Below, in pieces: positions 17,411-54,572 of a DNA stretch of 64,000 nucleotides (positions within the stretch are counted from its first letter, which is position 1; every line of letters begins with the position of its first letter). The stretch is taken from the NCBI GenBank assembly GCA_963827235.1, contig CAWHAE010000009.1, positions 448,001-512,000 of the forward strand, in the 5' to 3' direction. Source of the DNA: an uncultured bacterium. GTDB taxonomy: Bacteria > Chloroflexota > UBA5177 > JANWHV01. Made by a program: the position numbers and the translations under genes. The notes below the pieces were generated by a model. The model did no database searches, had not been told where the DNA came from, and saw only the letters and a list, made by a program, of their open reading frames with translations.

Positions 17411-17495
17411 GGGGAAGTGTCGGAATCGGTAGACGGGCATGACTTAGGATCATGTGCAGCAATGCGTGAGGGTTCGAGTCCCTCCTTCCCCACCA
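17411..17495 (+). tRNA. tRNA-Leu (anticodon TAG)
   Basis: Acceptor stem GGGGAAG/CTTCCCC followed by ACCA. Anticodon arm CATGA-CTTAGGA-TCATG, long variable arm, GGTTCGAGTCC T-loop. Typical position upstream of tig. Confidence 0.96.
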
Positions 17496-45578: not shown

Positions 45579-47528
45579 ATGAAGAGACTTTCCCTGGCGG
45601 CCGTGGCGGCTTGCCTGCTTCTAGCCCCGACCGCAGCTTCTGCCCCGGCTGCCACGCGGGCCGCCGCGCCCACCGCCACCATCACCGTGCACGCAGGCTC
45701 CAGTGGAGCGCGGATCAGCCCCACGCTGTTCGGCCTCATGTTCGAGGAGATCAACCATTCCGGCGACGGCGGCATCTACGCAGAGCTGCTCCAGAACCGG
45801 GCGATGCGTGACAACCCGCCGTACACCGATCCGTGGACGCTGGAGATGATGGGGCACGCGGCCGCGTCGCTCGATCTCGACGAGCACGACCCCGTCAACG
45901 GCAATCTGCCCGAGAGCTTGCGACTGACCATCTCCCGGCTCGCGGCGGGCGATCGCGCCGGCGTGTCCAACCCCGGCTACTACGGTATGGCGATCCGGCC
46001 GCGCACGACCTATCGCGTCTCGTTCTACGCGCGGAGCGGCGCCGGCTTCGCTGGGCCGCTCTCAGTAGCCCTCGAGAGCTCCGGCAACGCGATTCTGGCC
46101 GCGGCAACGGTCAACGGCGTGGGAAGCCGCTGGCGTCACTACACCCTCACGCTGACCACGAAGCCGACCCTCGTACCCGGCGAGAACAATCACTTCGTGA
46201 TCTCGGCGGCACACACGGGCACCATCTGGTTCAGCCTGGTGTCGCTCTTCCCTCCCACCTGGAACAACCGCCCGAACGGCATGCGCATCGACCTGATGCA
46301 GGACCTGCTGAGCCTGCATCCCGGCTTCCTGCGCATTCCCGGCGGCAACTATCTCGAGGGCCAGACGGTCGACACGCGCTTCATCTGGCAGAACACCCTG
46401 GGCGATCTTGCGCAGCGTCCGGGCCACCAGGACGACGCCTGGGGCTACCGATCCACGGACGGCCTGGGACTGCTGGAGTACCTGGAATGGTGCGAGGACT
46501 TGCACACCACCCCCGTTCTGGCGGTCTACGCCGGCTACTCGCTCTCCGGAAGCTATGTCCAGCCGGGACATGACCTGAAGCCGTACGTCCAGGATGCCCT
46601 GAACGAGATACAGTACGCCACGGGCCCGGTGTCCACCGTGTGGGGTGCGAAGCGTGCCGCCGACGGCCATCCCGCGCCATTCACGCTGCAGTACGTCGAG
46701 ATCGGAAACGAAGACTTCTTCGATCGCTCGGGCAGCTACGACGGGCGCTTCGCCCAGTTCTACGACGCCATCAAGGCAGCGTACCCGTCGATCAAGCTGA
46801 TCTCCACCACTACCGATATCAGCAGCCGCACGCCGGACCTGTTCGACCTGCATTTCTATGAAACGGCCGAGTGGTTTGCCGGCCAGGCCGGCTACTTCGA
46901 CAGCTACAGCCGCAGTGCTCCCAAGGTCATGGTCGGCGAGTACGCGGCGCGGGGCAGCGACGAAAGTATCGGGCAAGGGCAGGCTACGCTCGGCAATGCG
47001 ATCGGCGAAGCTGCCTGGCTCACCGGGCTCGAGCGAAATGCCGACGTCGTGCGCATGGCCTCCTACGCCCCACTGTTCCAGAACCTGAGCAGCTACCAAT
47101 GGAGTCCCGATCTGATCAGCTACGACGCGTTGAACACCGTCCCATCGCCTTCCTACTACGTCCAGCAGCTCTTTGCCTCAAACCACGGAGACGTCGTGGC
47201 GCCGGCTACGGTGAGTCGCGGCGTACCGCTTGCCGTCGTGGCCTCGAGAGACGATCGGCGGAGCACGTTCTACCTGACGGTGGTCAACTCCGGATCCTCC
47301 GCGCTGCGCTGCCGGGTGTCACTCCAGGGCGCGGAGACGATCGCGGGCAGCAGCAAGGTGACCGTGCTGACTGCGAGCAGCACGGATGACCAGAATACGC
47401 TCACTCAGCCGCGCCGGGTCTATCCGGCGACACGTCGGATCGCGACCCCCTCGACATCCTTTACCTTCAGCTTCGCCGCGCATTCGGTCACCGTCCTCCA
47501 GTTTTCTGCCGGCGCGCGGCCCGGCTAA
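45579..47528 (+). CDS. Secreted alpha-L-arabinofuranosidase, GH51 family, with CBM4/9-like N-terminal domain
   Basis: Signal peptide, FEEINHSGDGGIYAEL, FLRIPGGNYLEG, EIGNE, VGEYA, ERNADVVRMASYAPL. Confidence 0.92.
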   Translation: MKRLSLAAVAACLLLAPTAASAPAATRAAAPTATITVHAGSSGARISPTLFGLMFEEINHSGDGGIYAELLQNRAMRDNPPYTDPWTLEMMGHAAASLDLDEHDPVNGNLPESLRLTISRLAAGDRAGVSNPGYYGMAIRPRTTYRVSFYARSGAGFAGPLSVALESSGNAILAAATVNGVGSRWRHYTLTLTTKPTLVPGENNHFVISAAHTGTIWFSLVSLFPPTWNNRPNGMRIDLMQDLLSLHPGFLRIPGGNYLEGQTVDTRFIWQNTLGDLAQRPGHQDDAWGYRSTDGLGLLEYLEWCEDLHTTPVLAVYAGYSLSGSYVQPGHDLKPYVQDALNEIQYATGPVSTVWGAKRAADGHPAPFTLQYVEIGNEDFFDRSGSYDGRFAQFYDAIKAAYPSIKLISTTTDISSRTPDLFDLHFYETAEWFAGQAGYFDSYSRSAPKVMVGEYAARGSDESIGQGQATLGNAIGEAAWLTGLERNADVVRMASYAPLFQNLSSYQWSPDLISYDALNTVPSPSYYVQQLFASNHGDVVAPATVSRGVPLAVVASRDDRRSTFYLTVVNSGSSALRCRVSLQGAETIAGSSKVTVLTASSTDDQNTLTQPRRVYPATRRIATPSTSFTFSFAAHSVTVLQFSAGARPG

Positions 47529-47562
47529 TCGCGGGGCGTGTCGCCGGTATGCGCGCGGTTCG

Positions 47563-49728
47563 ATGAGGATGCGGCTGCGGCCCGCCGGGCACCTGAGCAT
47601 GAGCGCCCTGGTGTGGCTCGGCGCCCTGGTGTGCATCGGGCCCCTGGCCTGGGCCCTCGTCGCGTCGCTCAGCATCGAAGTCGGCTCGCTCTACGCACCG
47701 GGGACCGGCGGCATGCACATGCCGACGATCGACAACTATGTGCGGGCGATCAGGGACCAGCGCCTGTGGACAGGCTTCAAGAATACGGGCATAGAGCTGC
47801 TCATCGTGCTGCCCACGACGCTCTTCTTCTGCCCGCTTGCCGGCTACGGCTTCGCCAAGTTCCAGTTCTCGGCCAAACGCCTGCTCTTCATTCTCATGGT
47901 TCCCACGCTGTTCTCCGTGCCGGTGACGCAGTACGTGCCCCTGCTCGTGGAGATGAACTCGATCGGCTGGGTAGGCACCTACCAGGCGTTGGTCGTTCCC
48001 CTGCTGATCAGCTCTCTCGGAATCTTCTGGATGACGGCGGCGATCACGTCGGTGCCCGACGAGCTCCTCTACGCCGCCCGAGTCGACGGATGCAATAGCT
48101 TCCAGACCTGGTGGCGGATAGTGATGCCGGCGATCCGGCCTTCCCTGGTGAGCCTGGCCTTCGTCACCTTCATCACCGCCTACAACGACTACTACTGGCC
48201 GCTCCTGATCCTGCCGCAGGACAGCATGCACACGGTGCAAGTCGCGCTCCAGGCCGGCTCGGGCTACGGCCAGGGATTCCTCGCGGACATGGTGGTCGTC
48301 TGCATGCCGGCCGTGATCGCCTTTCTGTTCATGCAGCGCTACTTCTTGCGCACGCTGGCGGCGGAACGGCGACCACCGGCGATCGCGGAAAGCGTGCCGC
48401 CGTTCCAGCCGGATTCGGCGGCAGGCCAGGAGCAGCCCGCTGCCGGCGCGTCCGGCGCCCGGTCACCGCGGCGCGCGACCCGGGCCGCGCAGTGCGGCAC
48501 GGTCGTCGCCGCTACGGCTCTGGTCTACGTCCACTCGCTGCGGAACAGCCTGCACCTCGAAGACGTCCTGCGGCTGGTGGGAAACCCGGCGGTCGAGCAT
48601 TTCGCGCCGCTGTGGCGGTATTTCAGCGATCCCGCTGCCAGCTCATCCGTGCCCATCAATCTGCAGTTTCGACCCTTGCTGCCGCTCAGCCTGGCGGCCA
48701 ACCACGCGCTCACCGGCGACGGCGCGACCGGCTATCACCTGGGGAATCTCCTGCTGCTGGCCTGTGCCGGCATCGTCACCTATTACCTGGTGCGGGAGCT
48801 GCTCGGCCGGGCAGTGCCGGCTTTCGCCGAGGGAGACGTCGGCGTGGCGGCCACGGGCGTGGCCCTGCTCTCCTGCCTCCATCCGGCTGCTGCATTGCTG
48901 GTCGACACCGTGTCGGACCGCGCCTTGCTGCTGATGCAGATCTTTCTGGGGGCCGCGCTGCTGCTCTACGTGCGCTCTCGGGCGCCGGGCGCGCGCCGGC
49001 AGGCAGCAGGGCGCTGGCAATGGGAGATCCCGCGGCGCGCGGCCGGGCGGTCGATTCTGATTTGGCCGGTCATCCTTGCTCTGTTCGAGCTGGCCCTGCT
49101 GGCGAAGTCGCAGGCCGTGGTGGCGCCGGCGCTCGTGCTGGCGTTCGAGCTCACTGTAGGGCGGGCTAGCCCGTGGCAGCCCGCACCCTATCTGCGCTCC
49201 CTGCCATTCGCAGGCGTAGCGTGGGCACATCTTGCCTACATCAACGCCTATGTTGGCTATACCGCTCTACCGGACAGCGCCAATGCCGGGTTCGACGCCA
49301 CCTGGAACTACCCGCTCACGCAGATCCGCCTCAGCGCCGTCCACTATCTCGGCAACGTCGTCTGGCCGTTCAACGTGCGCTTGGTTGCGGTAGCGCCCAC
49401 CGCGAGCAGCCTTCTCGACGCCGGCGTGCTGATCGGAGCGGTCGTCATCGTGGGCACGCTGCTGTATGCCTGGCGAGCTCGCCGGTCGCAGCCCCTGCTG
49501 GCATTCTGCTTGCTTGCCTACTGGATCGCGCAGAGCGCGGAGTCGTCGGTAGTACCGATGGCGCGCAATGCGGCCGACTACCGCCCCTACCCGGCCCTGT
49601 CGTACCTCTTCCTGGCCCTGGTGCTGCTTCTGCGCCGGCGACTGAAACCGGCCCAGATCGCTTCCCTGCTGATCCTGCTGGCGGTGTACTTCTCGATCGC
49701 CTCGATCGGCTTGAGCGCGCAGTGGTGA
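47563..49728 (+). CDS. Carbohydrate ABC permease (MalG-like) fused to a TMTC/DUF1736-like GT-C membrane domain
   Basis: AGYGFAKF.F and EAA loop VPDELLYAARVDG..WNDY-like YNDYYWPL, FMQRYF. After a linker: VYVHSLRN..ED..LVGNP, FRPL, YHLGNLLL, LHP, ALLAK, WP, YRPYP. Confidence 0.7.
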   Translation: MRMRLRPAGHLSMSALVWLGALVCIGPLAWALVASLSIEVGSLYAPGTGGMHMPTIDNYVRAIRDQRLWTGFKNTGIELLIVLPTTLFFCPLAGYGFAKFQFSAKRLLFILMVPTLFSVPVTQYVPLLVEMNSIGWVGTYQALVVPLLISSLGIFWMTAAITSVPDELLYAARVDGCNSFQTWWRIVMPAIRPSLVSLAFVTFITAYNDYYWPLLILPQDSMHTVQVALQAGSGYGQGFLADMVVVCMPAVIAFLFMQRYFLRTLAAERRPPAIAESVPPFQPDSAAGQEQPAAGASGARSPRRATRAAQCGTVVAATALVYVHSLRNSLHLEDVLRLVGNPAVEHFAPLWRYFSDPAASSSVPINLQFRPLLPLSLAANHALTGDGATGYHLGNLLLLACAGIVTYYLVRELLGRAVPAFAEGDVGVAATGVALLSCLHPAAALLVDTVSDRALLLMQIFLGAALLLYVRSRAPGARRQAAGRWQWEIPRRAAGRSILIWPVILALFELALLAKSQAVVAPALVLAFELTVGRASPWQPAPYLRSLPFAGVAWAHLAYINAYVGYTALPDSANAGFDATWNYPLTQIRLSAVHYLGNVVWPFNVRLVAVAPTASSLLDAGVLIGAVVIVGTLLYAWRARRSQPLLAFCLLAYWIAQSAESSVVPMARNAADYRPYPALSYLFLALVLLLRRRLKPAQIASLLILLAVYFSIASIGLSAQW

Positions 49729-49977
49729 GCCGCGCGGCACCTCGCAAGCCCCTCGTTGCGTTGGGATCCAGCTGGACACGCCGCTGTCATGGCAGCGGAC
49801 GGACACCGCGCTGCCGGAGGAGCGCTGCCGATCTGGCTGGACAGCCTACTAAACCCGGTTGTGACCATGCCTGCACGTCTCAGTGGCGCTCACATTGGCC
49901 ATAGAGGATCGCGTAGCGCAGGGCGCGGCCGTCTTCGAGCGAAGGTTCGAGCGCGTGGGCCTATATGTATGGCGGGA

Positions 49978-50847
49978 CTACTCGAGATCGCCTTGCGTAA
50001 CGCCCTGGCCGGTGGTGTACAGCTCTCGGGCAAAGGCGGCGATTCGCGCGCCGGTCTCCCGGGGATACATGTAGCCAAGCATCCCGGCGGTCTCCTCTGC
50101 CAGGCGCTCGAACAGGACAATAGTGGCGAAGAAGGCACGCCAGCCATCGGCACGATCGAAGCGAGAGAAGCAGCTGCCGAGGGCGTGCCAGATGGCGGGA
50201 TCGACCCATTCTCGCATGTGCTTGCCGAGGTAGTACGTGTCGTAGTCCGAGCCGTGCTTGGCCCGGGCGTGCCACTCGATCACCTGTCGCAGCAGCTCGC
50301 GTGTCGACCACTCTCTCTGCTTGACCAGCCACAGCTCCCCACGGCGAAGGTACTTCGGAATATGGTATGCCTCAAACCAGAACTCGTTCACCACGGCGAG
50401 GAAGGCGCGCTCAGAGGGCGCTGCCTGCGGCGCCGGTCGCCCGGTAAACGGCGTAGCGCTCGCTGCGCGCCCATCCTTATCCAGCAAGATCCGGTAACCA
50501 CGATTGTAGAGATCCTCGATGACCGGCCCGCACAGGTCCCGCTCGAACCACGAGGCCGGTGTGATCGAAAAGTCGACCTTCAGGCCGCCCTCGAAGACGA
50601 CAAGCCGGGTTGGCGGGCCGTCGGGCTCGTTGGCGAGTGCGAGATATACCCACACGCCGGCGATCTGGTGAATCCAGGCGTCCGAGTCCGTGTACAGGGC
50701 ACTATCGGCGACGAACATGGCGATATCCAGGTCGGAGAGACCATCGGCATCGCCGTTCACGGCGCCGCGCGAGCCGGTGAGGAGCATGGCGCGGACTGCC
50801 TCCTGTCCCTGTCCCCAAGCCACGAGGGTCTGCAGCAGATCATCCAT
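49978..50847 (-). CDS. Aminoglycoside 6-adenylyltransferase (AadK/ANT(6))-like nucleotidyltransferase
   Basis: GSRG..D.LSDLDI, KVDF, ILLDKDG, VNEFWFE..K.L.RGELW, GK. Confidence 0.8.
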   Translation of the reverse strand: MDDLLQTLVAWGQGQEAVRAMLLTGSRGAVNGDADGLSDLDIAMFVADSALYTDSDAWIHQIAGVWVYLALANEPDGPPTRLVVFEGGLKVDFSITPASWFERDLCGPVIEDLYNRGYRILLDKDGRAASATPFTGRPAPQAAPSERAFLAVVNEFWFEAYHIPKYLRRGELWLVKQREWSTRELLRQVIEWHARAKHGSDYDTYYLGKHMREWVDPAIWHALGSCFSRFDRADGWRAFFATIVLFERLAEETAGMLGYMYPRETGARIAAFARELYTTGQGVTQGDLE

Positions 50848-50931
50848 GACCACGCTCTTGCGCCCACGATCCAGCAAGGCGCGACACCCAGCCCAATGGC
50901 TGGGGCGCGTAATTGAGGCTGCTCCGGTCCG

Positions 50932-51207
50932 TCAGGGCTGCCGGCTGGTGTGCTGTACACGCAGGACGACTACGCAATCTTCCTCAACTCGATAGATGGC
51001 AAGGTACGGATAGCGGCGCAGTATCAATTCACGCGTACCCACCTTCCTGCCGGGCCGTCCATATGCAGGGTGCAGGCCCAAGCGCTCGATCTGGGCGCGG
51101 ATATCCGCCAGCACCCCATGGGCATGAGCTGGACCGCTCAGTCGGGCGTAATAGGCGTGGATCGCTTCGAGGTTCCGGAGGGCTTGCCGCAGGAAGCAGA
51201 TTACCAC
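50932..51207 (-). CDS. Type II toxin, RelE/ParE family
   Basis: ALRNLEAIHAYY, HPAYGRPGRKVGTRELIL..YPYLAIYRV..VVVLRVQH. Overlaps the antitoxin stop. Confidence 0.88.
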   Translation of the reverse strand: MVICFLRQALRNLEAIHAYYARLSGPAHAHGVLADIRAQIERLGLHPAYGRPGRKVGTRELILRRYPYLAIYRVEEDCVVVLRVQHTSRQP

Positions 51208-51485
51208 GTTTCCTCGGCAACACGTGCACGCGCCTGTGCTAGTGCCGACGGGGTTGTGAGCCGATCTAATGTCACTTCCACCTCTTCCGCCGTAGCCACA
51301 TCGCCTGCGGCCAATTCTGTCAGGCCCGCCTCGATATCCGCGAGCTGCCATCGCTCGCGCTCAAGGTATTCCTTTACGGCTTCGTTGAAGAGATAGTTGG
51401 TGCTGCGGCCCGTGGCTTGGGCAAGCTTGGCCATCTGATCCTTCACATCGGGATCGAGACGCACGCTGAACGTAGTCATCGGCAT
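51201..51485 (-). CDS. Type II antitoxin, CopG/ribbon-helix-helix family
   Basis: TTFSVRLDPDVKDQMAKLAQATGRSTNYL.NEAV..YL..E.WQ...IEAG; AGAGGGAG RBS. Confidence 0.88.
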   Translation of the reverse strand: MPMTTFSVRLDPDVKDQMAKLAQATGRSTNYLFNEAVKEYLERERWQLADIEAGLTELAAGDVATAEEVEVTLDRLTTPSALAQARARVAEETW

Positions 51486-51911
51486 GGACATACTCCCTCT
51501 TGGCCATGGTAACACACATGCACACCATGTGCGCCAACGTGTGCAGGGCACCATCGCGACTCGGCTGGCACTGAGCAGTTGCGCATCGATCCCGCACAGG
51601 CGTGATCAGGCACCGTCAGAGACTCCAGGGTCGCATCCTGACGGCGGGTTGTCCGCAGGTGTATAGCACGATATCGCGGGCTCCCAGAGAACAGGTGTAC
51701 GGTAGAGGAGCGGGAGAGAGAATCCCGTGCTGCCGTCGCCGTCGGGCCCGTCCGGATCGAACCGGGTGGTATGGACTGACCGGCGCCGGTCACGCTGATG
51801 CCGGAGGATCTGAGGCAGCGCTCGGCGCGCCGATCCGCCGGCACCGCCTGATGTGCCGTGGCGCCGCTTACCCTCCCCCCTGGCGGCGCCACGGCACAAC
51901 TCCCTCCGGCC

Positions 51912-53006
51912 CTATCGGTAGAGAGCTCTCAGCGCAGCCCATGTGTGCGTGTTGGAGAGGATGTCCGTGGAGTCGACGTACTGGTCGATCGAGCCAATGC
52001 TCGGAGCCAGCCCTCGCACCTCGGGACTTTCAATCGCCGCGCGAATGGCCTCGGCGAATTGCTGCCCATGAATGACGAGGTAGGGACGCGAGTAGAACGG
52101 CGAGACATGCACCGGAAGCGGCGGCGTGATGGCGAGCGCGTTGTGTAGCGAGGCTGCGGCCTCATAGGCCCGAGCAAGATGCTCCTCGCGCTCTTGCCAC
52201 GAATTGCCCTGCAGGGCGCCCATCAGCATGGGCGTGAGCGGAGCCGCACAGCGCAGTCGCGAGAACGCGGTGCCGAACCATTTGCTGTAGGGAGCGTACG
52301 TGCTCTCCATCAGGAAGCACAGCAGCATGAGGTCGTGGACGAGTCGCGCGGCAATGATCCGCGAGCCGGCTTCATCGCCCGTTTCGCCGCAGCGCGCCAT
52401 GAATGGCTCCTCCTGAGAGATGCGCTGCCACTGGGCCGCCAGCATGTAGAGCCATACGTCCCGTGGATAGTAGCGAAGCTTTCGACGAAGCGGCTCCAGC
52501 TCGCCGAGCCCATCATGATACACCCGTCCCGCGGTCATGCTGCGAAGGCGCTGCTGCGGCAGGACGAGCCAATCCACGGGTGCAAGATCTCCGTACGGGT
52601 CGATACCCAGGTAGTCGTCGGCGAACGACCCGATCGTCCAGACACGCACGCCATGCGTTACCGGGCCGCTCGCGATCGGTTCCAGCCAGCCGCCATCAAC
52701 CTCCGGTGAAGCGAAGTTGGTTGGATAGCCATACACTTCATAGGGAAGGTCTTCACTCAATACCTCGGTAATGCGATCTCGGGTCCGCTCCTCGGTTCCC
52801 TCCGGCACGAAGAGCTCGAGCTTCGGGCCCCAGCCGTGGTCCGTCGACCGCTCTGTGTCGAAGCCCAGCACGTCGGAGCCCCAGCCGATACGCGCGGCAG
52901 AATACGCCAAGTCCGGGAAGCGCGCGGCGAGCACCCGCTTGACGGCTTCGTCGTAGAACAGCTCACTCAGGGCGAGACCCGGAATGAAGGGCTTTCGCCG
53001 CTGCAT
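51912..53006 (-). CDS. DUF4037-containing nucleotidyltransferase-like protein
   Basis: GWGSDVLGFDTERSTDHGWGP (GS..D.D type), YYPRDVW, QEEPFMAR, YAPYSKW. Confidence 0.8.
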   Translation of the reverse strand: MQRRKPFIPGLALSELFYDEAVKRVLAARFPDLAYSAARIGWGSDVLGFDTERSTDHGWGPKLELFVPEGTEERTRDRITEVLSEDLPYEVYGYPTNFASPEVDGGWLEPIASGPVTHGVRVWTIGSFADDYLGIDPYGDLAPVDWLVLPQQRLRSMTAGRVYHDGLGELEPLRRKLRYYPRDVWLYMLAAQWQRISQEEPFMARCGETGDEAGSRIIAARLVHDLMLLCFLMESTYAPYSKWFGTAFSRLRCAAPLTPMLMGALQGNSWQEREEHLARAYEAAASLHNALAITPPLPVHVSPFYSRPYLVIHGQQFAEAIRAAIESPEVRGLAPSIGSIDQYVDSTDILSNTHTWAALRALYR

Positions 53007-53027: not shown

Positions 53028-54572
53028 CTATGTCTCGATCTTGGGGAAGAGAATAGGCAGCGCGCCTATGGCGGCACCCGGCTCGAGCTGGCCCCAGCCT
53101 CCGACGTACGGCTGCTCGGGCAGGGCAAGGGCCCGGCGAAGAGCGGCCATCTTCTCCGGCATGGCCGGCAGCAGCAGGGTGGCGGCGATGCCCAGGGCTT
53201 CACCGGCGTAGTAGAGGGTGGTAGCCACGCTCTCCATGTCGCCCGCCTTGGCGGCAGTCCACGGCGACTTCTGCTCCAGGTAGCCGTTGGTCCGCTTCAC
53301 CAGGGAGATCGCCTCGCCGATTGCCTGGTGCGGCTGCATATTCTCGACGGCAGATCGCACGAGATCCGGCGTGGCAATCGCCGCGTCTCGCAGGTCGCGA
53401 TCGGCGTCGATTTCGCCCGGTGGATCAGGTATGCGCCCGGCGAAGTAGCGGGCGGTCATGTTGACGACCCTGTTGGCCAGGTTGCCCAGGTCGTGGGCCA
53501 GGTCGGCATTGTAGCGACGGACCAGCCCTTCCGGGCTGAACTCGCTGTCCTGCCCGAACTGCATCTCGCGCAGGAGCAGGTAGCGTGTGCCGTCCACCTC
53601 GAATCGACGCACCAGATCCAGCGGAGCGCGGAAGAGCGCCATCGCCTCGGCAAAGCTGCCGTCCACGCCGACCGACTTCGAACCCTTCTGACCGGCCATG
53701 GTCCAGTAGCCGTGCACGTTCAGGTGCTGGAAGAGGGGGATGCCGGCAGCCTGCAGCATGCACGGCCAGAAGATGGCATGCGGCTTCAGGATGTCTTTGG
53801 CGATGATGTGTTGGGCGACCGGCCAATAGCTCTTGTACAGGTCGCCGTCCGGATAATCCAATGCCGAGACGTAGTTGATCAGGGCGTCGAACCACACGTA
53901 GGTCACATACTTGTCGTCGAAGGGCAGCGGTATGCCCCAGGTAAGCCGCTCCGTGGGGCGCGAGATGCAGAGATCTTCGAGCGGGTCGCGCAGGAAACCG
54001 AGCACTTCGCGCCGGTACTGATCCGGCCGCACGATATCCGGCTGCGCTTCGAGCAGACCGATCAACCAGTCCTGGTAGGCGCTCATGCGGAAGAAATAGT
54101 TCTTCTCGCTGATGTAGGTCGGCTCGGTGCGATGCTGCGGGCACTTGCCGTCTACCAGCTCCTTCTCTGTATAGAAGCGCTCGCAGCCGTAGCAATAGAG
54201 GCCGCCGTACTCGCCAAAGTAGATCTCGCCCTTGTCGTAGACGGTTTGTAGAATCCGCTGCACGACCCTGGCATGCCGCGGCTCCGTGGTGCGGATGAAG
54301 TCGTCCGTCTGGATGCCGAGCTGCGGCCAGGTGCTGCGGAAGACGTCGCTGATGCGCGTAGCGTACTCATAGGGAGACACGCCGAAGGCGGCCGCCGCCT
54401 GGGCCACCTTGTCGCCGTGCTCGTCGGTGCCGGTCAGCATACGGCTGTTCTTGCCGAACAGGCGCTGATATCGGGTGATCGTGTCGGCGACGATAGTGGT
54501 ATAGGCGCTGCCCGCGCTCGGCTCGGCGTTGACGTAGTAGATAGGGGTGGTGATGTAGAAGCTGTCACTCAT
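53028..54572 (-). CDS. metG: Methionyl-tRNA synthetase (short, single knuckle) with non-canonical HIGH/KMSKS motifs
   Basis: FYITTPIYYVN, TGTDEHG, FIRTT, CYGCE..CPQH, DLCISR..WGI, YVWFDALINY, KDI, DLGNL.NR, PW. Confidence 0.88.
   Translation of the reverse strand: MSDSFYITTPIYYVNAEPSAGSAYTTIVADTITRYQRLFGKNSRMLTGTDEHGDKVAQAAAAFGVSPYEYATRISDVFRSTWPQLGIQTDDFIRTTEPRHARVVQRILQTVYDKGEIYFGEYGGLYCYGCERFYTEKELVDGKCPQHRTEPTYISEKNYFFRMSAYQDWLIGLLEAQPDIVRPDQYRREVLGFLRDPLEDLCISRPTERLTWGIPLPFDDKYVTYVWFDALINYVSALDYPDGDLYKSYWPVAQHIIAKDILKPHAIFWPCMLQAAGIPLFQHLNVHGYWTMAGQKGSKSVGVDGSFAEAMALFRAPLDLVRRFEVDGTRYLLLREMQFGQDSEFSPEGLVRRYNADLAHDLGNLANRVVNMTARYFAGRIPDPPGEIDADRDLRDAAIATPDLVRSAVENMQPHQAIGEAISLVKRTNGYLEQKSPWTAAKAGDMESVATTLYYAGEALGIAATLLLPAMPEKMAALRRALALPEQPYVGGWGQLEPGAAIGALPILFPKIET

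Follow-up and report, generated by a model that had tools for sequence, protein, structure and literature searches.

The HIGH and KMSKS motifs define the class I aminoacyl-tRNA synthetases, and both histidines of HIGH are textbook catalytic residues. In bacterial TrpRS, an active class I (Ic) enzyme, the place of HIGH is taken by TIGN, with small polar residues at positions 1 and 4, which shows by analogy that such residues can support class I chemistry. Cyclodipeptide synthase-like enzymes consist of a small, single Rossmann-like domain without an anticodon domain, use a catalytic serine, and have tailoring genes nearby. Second synthetases of the resistance type (IleRS2/MupA, and the MetRS2 of Gram-positive bacteria) coexist with a sensitive housekeeping copy or are inhibitor-insensitive.

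The closest precedent in kind for the gene described here (P0001) is IleRS2 with a G/AXHH motif (PMC10485003). In the accessible text of that study, IleRS2 is, like P0001, a class Ia enzyme with a naturally altered, clade-defining HIGH motif; it is a housekeeping enzyme, only a suitable background in the active site allows the altered motif, and mupirocin hyper-resistance belongs to the GXHH form. IleRS2 keeps two histidines, that at the third position replacing the first, whereas the motif of P0001 has none. For MetRS1 itself, the available text on the Mtb enzyme (PMC6038951; also bioRxiv 10.1101/2025.06.06.658285) describes His18 as bonding with adenine N7 and His21 with the alpha-phosphate. 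The cupin-associated MetRS paralogue (Iyer/Aravind 2010, PMC2922099) is found as an additional MetRS-like gene alongside a conventional one, a configuration seen in the present study in one genome only (G000, the genome of the window). As far as the accessible part of that article covers the family, its members have an archaeal-type double Zn ribbon, keep the catalytic residues and are always accompanied by a cupin and a lysine N6-monooxygenase, fused or as neighbouring genes.

The MetRS Gene and Its Altered Motifs

The window, i.e., the whole stretch of 64,000 nt that was analysed, carries on its minus strand an intact gene for a bacterial-type (MetRS1-type) methionine–tRNA ligase (P0001; 53028..54572; 514 aa plus stop), and the host belongs to a soil genus of Chloroflexota. 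The protein scores above the cut-offs of NF008900, the NCBI MetRS equivalog (617 bits, cut-off 598; alignment spanning residues 2–513), TIGR00398 (418.7 bits, cut-off 336.35) and PF09334 (302.4 bits, cut-off 20.1; E 5.6e-90). Residues 3–513 align with the MetRS of Thermus thermophilus (3vu8/1a8h; E 1e-159).

A first-pass annotation of this DNA had noted SAGS in place of HIGH, KGSKS in place of KMSKS and about ten extra residues thereafter, and all three were confirmed by translation. SAGS (54507..54518, minus strand) forms residues 19–22, and of H-x-G-H the glycine alone is retained. KGSKS (53673..53687, minus strand; residues 296–300) keeps both lysines and both serines of KMSKS and replaces the methionine by glycine; the two lysines, K296 and K299, do not vary in alignment A1. 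The 10-residue insertion (DGSFAEAMAL; residues 304–313; 53634..53663, minus strand) follows the KMSKS loop. Two arginines encoded on the same strand, both gained in clades A and B (see below), are Arg44 (54441..54443), where canonical relatives have Tyr or Phe, and Arg315 (53628..53630), directly after the insertion, where they have Val or Leu.

The annotation had also described the Zn knuckle, DEHG, YVWFDAL and PW as intact in an uninterrupted frame, and this was borne out: the frame runs through 514 codons, and GTDEHG, YVWFDAL, VHGYW and KSPW are all found in its translation. The single Zn knuckle of the connective-peptide domain (54132..54194, minus strand) has the ligands C127, C130, C144 and H147, which are invariant in alignment A1 and align with those of the Thermus enzyme. 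The anticodon-binding helical domain (53031..53525, minus strand) contains NADLAHDLGNLANR and KSPW; its score against PF19303 is 22.7 bits, just below the cut-off of 23.5, and in alignment A1 N355, N364, R368 and P437 of this domain do not vary, and the conservation of W438 is at least 90%. Residues of the methionine and adenylate pocket were taken from Table 3 of PMC6038951 (Mtb MetRS), the Mtb numbering being mapped by motif and not by direct alignment with 5xet, and alignment A1 shows either no variation or at least 90% conservation at those of P0001 (PIYY, D50, W227, A230/L231, N233/Y234, K259-D260-I261 and H287-G288-Y-W290). The Thermus enzyme (1a8h, 3vu8, 2d5b), also a one-knuckle MetRS1, shares the Zn ligand positions, the methionine pocket and the anticodon domain with P0001, and neither protein has a C-terminal dimerisation or tRNA-binding domain. 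The difference lies in HLGH, KMSKT and a short spacer in Thermus, against SAGS, KGSKS and 10 extra residues in P0001.

An AlphaFold2 model of P0001, based on a 46-sequence alignment, has a pLDDT of 91.8. Residues 306–315 are predicted to be helical and to run into the helix of residues 317–336, while the pLDDT is 63–64 over residues 291–310, a low value that is expected in such a model for a mobile KMSKS loop. The model adds only a helical insertion and a flexible loop.

Distribution of the Motif Changes among Homologues

The best 120 of 8000 scored homologues from a collection of 5.8 billion proteins were aligned. Clade A, with 76–91% identity, has S-x-G-S (x being A, V, T or C) in all 17 sequences that cover the N-terminus, and KGSKS with the insertion in all 18 that cover the loop. 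Clade B comprises ten sequences (63–67% identity) which, together with P0032, carry HLGS, K[GA][GS]K[ST] and an insertion of 13 residues. Three sequences (62–64% identity) with HLGS, a normal KMSKS and no insertion make up clade C. The other 89 sequences (at most 59% identity) are canonical, with H-x-G-H, KMSKS and both histidines in every one, and the position of the insertion is an alignment gap in these 89 and in clade C. The first HIGH histidine is present in all 103 homologues outside clade A among the best 120. The SxGS feature is real, conserved and clade-defining, which answers the question whether SAGS/KGSKS marks a clade. In the 89 canonical relatives, 194 alignment columns reach a conservation of at least 90%; clade A retains 180 of these, its departures being essentially the two motifs and the insertion, which points to remodelling focused on the nucleotide site and not to general decay.

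The rarity of each change was assessed in 143 MetRS1 cluster representatives, drawn from the 150 best-scoring of 16981 hits in a search of 1.84 billion proteins. Replacement of the fourth HIGH residue is common (43/143): the position is occupied by His in 100 representatives, Thr in 22, Ser in 12, Asn in five and Phe in three. MetRS1 enzymes with HxGT, HxGS, HxGN or HxGF, including clades B and C (HLGS), thus lack the fourth histidine as P0001 does, but they keep the first histidine and, as a rule, a short KMSKS spacer, and P0001 has neither. The first histidine is found in 142 of the 143. Glycine at position 2 of KMSKS occurs in none of 148 cluster representatives, and the spacer between KMSKS and the conserved Pro317, 16 aa in P0001, is 6 aa in 137 of the 148 and at least 10 aa in six. 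Judged from these alignments, the rare features of P0001 are the loss of the first histidine, the glycine at KMSKS position 2 and the 16-residue spacer.

Two further observations come from the same representatives. Four of them (P0299, P0381, P0372 and P0267) have independent insertions of 10–42 residues directly after the KMSKS loop, indicating that this site accepts insertions repeatedly. The sole representative without the first histidine, P0284, is a MetRS1-like protein of 506 aa with RFEK aligned at HIGH and ATSGS at KMSKS; both motifs are gone, and judged from its sequence it may be a genuinely degenerate paralogue of MetRS.

Among 126 MetRS1 genes of representative genomes, the first histidine is present at 124 loci; HIGT was found in 11, HIGF in four (of which L015 belongs to the unpublished genome G018), HLGF in one and PLHS in two. 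The single-contig genomes G149, G197 and G237, and also G028 and G007, have one MetRS each above the TIGR00398 cut-off, and other Chloroflexota, single-contig genomes included, have a single MetRS with HIGT, HIGF or PLHS. A sole MetRS without the fourth histidine is therefore normal in Chloroflexota, despite the inactivation of the Mtb enzyme by H21A. The two PLHS genes, L016 (G028:C1:1154187-1155644) and L026 (G040:C7), are each the single MetRS1 of a small, nearly complete Chloroflexota genome; with Pro at position 1 and His at position 3 they recall the position swap of IleRS2 GXHH, an assignment that depends on the alignment. No genome of clade B or C is among the 401 sampled Chloroflexota, the next best match having 48% identity, and a search of genome contigs with the clade B protein P0025 likewise retrieved no clade B or C genome (best match 58%).

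Order of the Changes

A quick IQ-TREE reconstruction from 79 sequences, with SH-aLRT supports of 96–99, recovers (C,(P0032,(B,A))), the sister of which is a canonical, Anaerolineae-like group; the stem branches (0.2–0.3) are no longer than others. The most economical reading of the sequences is that H22S (HLGH to HLGS) came first, at the base of A+B+C; that M297G, the insertion, Arg44, Arg315 and Gly328 arose at the base of A+B; and that H19S and D72T came last, at the base of A. This suggests a stepwise change from HLGH to HLGS, then to KG[GS]KS with the insertion and Arg44/Arg315, and finally to SxGS. The co-evolved remodelling of the ATP site put forward in the first-pass annotation agrees with this nesting and with the 180 of 194 core columns kept. 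Two of its points were overrated, since the change at the fourth HIGH position is ordinary (43/143) and KGSKS keeps both lysines.

Sequence Authenticity and Selection

At the DNA level, four genomes of the genus use AGC for both serines, and GGT, GGA or GGC for Gly297. Pairwise dN/dS values among the four are 0.06–0.13 at dS 0.75–1.7, which represents purifying selection. MetRS diverges about like LeuRS: identities to genus-mates G001 and G004 are 91% and 76% for MetRS and 89% and 84% for LeuRS.

The assembly of G000 shows irregularities at other loci. Its LeuRS gene (G000:C9:932800-935800) switches frame right after KMSKSRGNVVNPD, giving 686 aa and then 221 aa in another frame (892–898 aa in the genus-mates), and its ilvD gene (L056:12119-13834) encodes 302 aa against 573 in G001; both are apparent indel errors of the assembly. 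They lend some colour to the idea that the motif codons of P0001 are likewise a sequencing or assembly artefact, an outcome for which the first-pass annotation had allowed. We give that idea practically no weight: the motifs recur in 17 independent homologues and in the DNA of three other genus genomes, with synonymous differences around them, which refutes it. The shared motif codons and the low dN/dS rule out an artefact despite the indel errors of G000.

MetRS Complement of the Genus

The genomes of four genus-mates (G001–G004) were searched with P0001, P0002 (see below) and PF09334, at the protein and family level, and also at the DNA level. In G001 (87% complete) and G004 (90% complete) they recovered a single MetRS, the full-length SxGS enzyme; G002 (83% complete) likewise yielded this enzyme alone, its gene being cut by a contig end; in G003 (92% complete) these searches found no MetRS of any kind. 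None of the four yielded a second MetRS by protein, family or DNA search. Since the genus-mates are drafts (83–92% complete), one of them without any MetRS, each absence is weak evidence.

G000 (8.0 Mb, 21 contigs, 95.9% complete, 9% contamination) is the one genus genome nearly complete in few contigs, yet it keeps a second, ordinary MetRS, P0002, on another contig and outside the window (C19:215596-217389; L034/L056). Two MetRS genes occur together in G000 only; in the genus-mates the SxGS type is the only one found. The 598-aa P0002 is an archaeal-type MetRS (MetRS2) whose signature motifs read HLGH and RLSTSR. A search for a second canonical metG, as the first-pass annotation had advised, thus succeeded in G000 and failed in all four genus-mates. 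The relatives of P0002 (n = 119) have at most 72% identity (67–68% for Thermomicrobium and Thermorudis) and share the motif [QK][FL]STSR at the KMSKS position, making P0002 an ordinary member of its own lineage. QFSTSR, present in 58 of the 120 sequences tallied (P0002 included) and frequent in its Thermomicrobium-like relatives, has no lysine at the KMSKS position.

Among 5.8 billion proteins, P0001 has 17 homologues with at least 75% identity; for P0002 none was found. No match to it was found in the DNA or proteins of G001–G004, and no MetRS of its type in class-mates. P0002 is flanked by an AlkZ-like gene and ilvD, and the slot between these two is variable; its syntenic counterpart in G001 holds two different ORFs, apparently of the SGNH and MFS types as judged from their translations. 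Neither a cupin nor a lysine N6-monooxygenase gene lies near P0002. Contamination as its source was rejected, as the tetranucleotide correlation between C19 and C9 is 0.999 and the flanks on C19 are syntenic with G001. From these comparisons, P0002 is best read as a later, strain-specific gain of a normal Thermomicrobia-like MetRS2. The four absences of P0002, its syntenic replacement in G001 and its lack of close homologues make a hidden canonical MetRS in the genus-mates unlikely, and the SxGS enzyme appears to be the only MetRS in most of the genus.

Gene Context

The neighbours of P0001 in the window are genes for DUF4037, ANT(6)-like (PF04439), MBL, GNAT, a/b hydrolase and TetR proteins. 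These were not found beside the orthologues in G001 and G004, and ArsA alone is common with G001. MetRS and ArsA are adjacent in G001; in the window an accessory block (45579-53006) lies between them, with genes for an arabinofuranosidase, an ABC permease, the PF04439 aminoglycoside-adenylyltransferase-like protein and DUF4037, and by gene order it is an insertion in G000 relative to G001. At the G000, G001 and G004 loci, the MetRS gene has no conserved partner, and no biosynthetic cluster hints at another role for it. The window, the region of P0002 and the loci in G001 and G004 were scanned with Rfam; no T-box or other leader emerged, and the sole match was a tRNA (window 17411-17492). A codon-usage index places P0001 in the 94th–97th percentile, P0002 in the 41st and other aminoacyl-tRNA synthetases in the 29th–90th, and does not discriminate.

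Two assignments to described families were considered and rejected. P0001 is not a cupin-associated MetRS paralogue, as it has a single Zn knuckle and its neighbours are the DUF4037, MBL, GNAT and ANT(6)-like genes. Nor is it cyclodipeptide synthase-like: it has the full MetRS architecture of 514 aa and no conserved neighbours, and the replacement of His by Ser is the one parallel that remains.

Discussion

We favour, with moderate confidence, the reading that P0001 is the active housekeeping MetRS of its lineage, with an ATP site that was naturally remodelled in steps. The enzyme would bind methionine, ATP and tRNA-Met like a bacterial MetRS1, form Met-AMP and transfer methionine to the tRNA. 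The fourth HIGH residue would have become serine first, a change tolerated in many MetRS1; Met297 in the KMSKS loop would then have become glycine, with the gain of a helix of 10–13 residues and the appearance of Arg44 and Arg315; and only after both steps would the first HIGH histidine have given way to serine. The serine hydroxyls (directly or via water), the reshaped KMSKS loop and the new arginines may together replace the contacts of the two histidines with adenine N7 and with the alpha-phosphate or pyrophosphate. The remodelling differs from the TIGN of TrpRS, which is the ancestral state of its family, in being recent and inside a HIGH-bearing family. Methionine activation and tRNA-Met charging by P0001 are indicated indirectly, by its standing as the only MetRS found in G001, G004 and G002 and by the purifying selection on it. 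Counted against an active P0001 are the near-universal presence of the first histidine elsewhere (142/143 representatives, 103/103 homologues, 124/126 genome loci), the second MetRS kept by G000, the draft state of the genus-mates and, in the accessible text of PMC6038951, the abolition of ATP-PPi exchange in Mtb MetRS1 by H21A.

A stronger form of this reading, possible but doubtful, is that the only MetRS of the genus works with no HIGH histidine because the inserted helix and Arg44/Arg315 stabilise the transition state, so that its nucleotide site would be unlike that of every studied class Ia synthetase. If true, it would possibly bring an altered nucleotide preference or an intrinsic insensitivity to adenylate-mimicking inhibitors. 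More boldly still, one of the serines may serve a second chemistry on Met-tRNA.

The first-pass annotation had also offered a repurposed tRNA-binding paralogue, and this we consider improbable. Such a protein would bind methionine and tRNA-Met without efficient methionine activation and would have another role, as a regulator, a tRNA chaperone or a Met-tRNA-dependent transferase using serine as in cyclodipeptide synthases; charging would then fall to P0002 in G000 and to an unassembled MetRS in the other genomes. The loss of both HIGH histidines fits, given that in the available text on Mtb MetRS (PMC6038951) H21A alone kills the enzyme, and so does the precedent of cyclodipeptide synthases, which lost HIGH and gained a conserved serine according to the accessible part of PMC2922099. 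G000 does carry a second MetRS with HLGH, and the genus-mates are incomplete, G003 being without any MetRS; but a second MetRS was found in none of the four, other genes fill the syntenic slot in G001, and P0002 is without a close homologue anywhere (none with at least 75% identity in 5.8 billion proteins). The paralogue is disfavoured because in three of the four genus-mates the searches turned up the SxGS enzyme and no other MetRS. The other adenylate-site residues and both KMSKS lysines are conserved, which would be unneeded if ATP were no longer bound, and a conserved partner gene is absent.

A further proposal, which can stand beside that of an active housekeeping MetRS, concerns why the ATP site changed: a natural adenylate-mimicking inhibitor may have selected the remodelled site. 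In the accessible text of PMC10485003, IleRS2 with a swapped HXGH stays a housekeeping enzyme with a ~10^3-fold higher mupirocin Ki, a parallel weakened by the fact that the P0001 motif keeps no histidine. The remodelling does not extend beyond the nucleotide site, and the G000 gene lies among resistance-like genes (ANT(6)-like PF04439, GNAT, MBL and TetR), but these neighbours do not recur in G001 or G004, and neither an inhibitor nor a biosynthetic cluster is in view at these loci. To our knowledge, there is no natural MetRS inhibitor to which the SxGS change could be tied, and we hold this cause to be unlikely.

The first-pass annotation had left room for SAGS/KGSKS being the ordinary, already documented motif of the sole MetRS of the lineage. 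That it is the sole MetRS largely holds. That it is documented does not appear to: no account of an SxGS MetRS turned up in full-text literature searches or in the accessible part of PMC11580382.

Considered from its sequence, the SxGS MetRS is a natural, conserved and probably essential enzyme without either HIGH histidine. The intermediates are preserved (HLGH, HLGS, HLGS with a remodelled KMSKS loop, and SxGS), and this series could show how an ATP site gets rebuilt without loss of function, as in the work on IleRS2 GXHH. For annotation, motif-based checks would mark SxGS enzymes as dead. Work on MetRS inhibitors targets the same pocket, which makes the SxGS variant relevant there as well.
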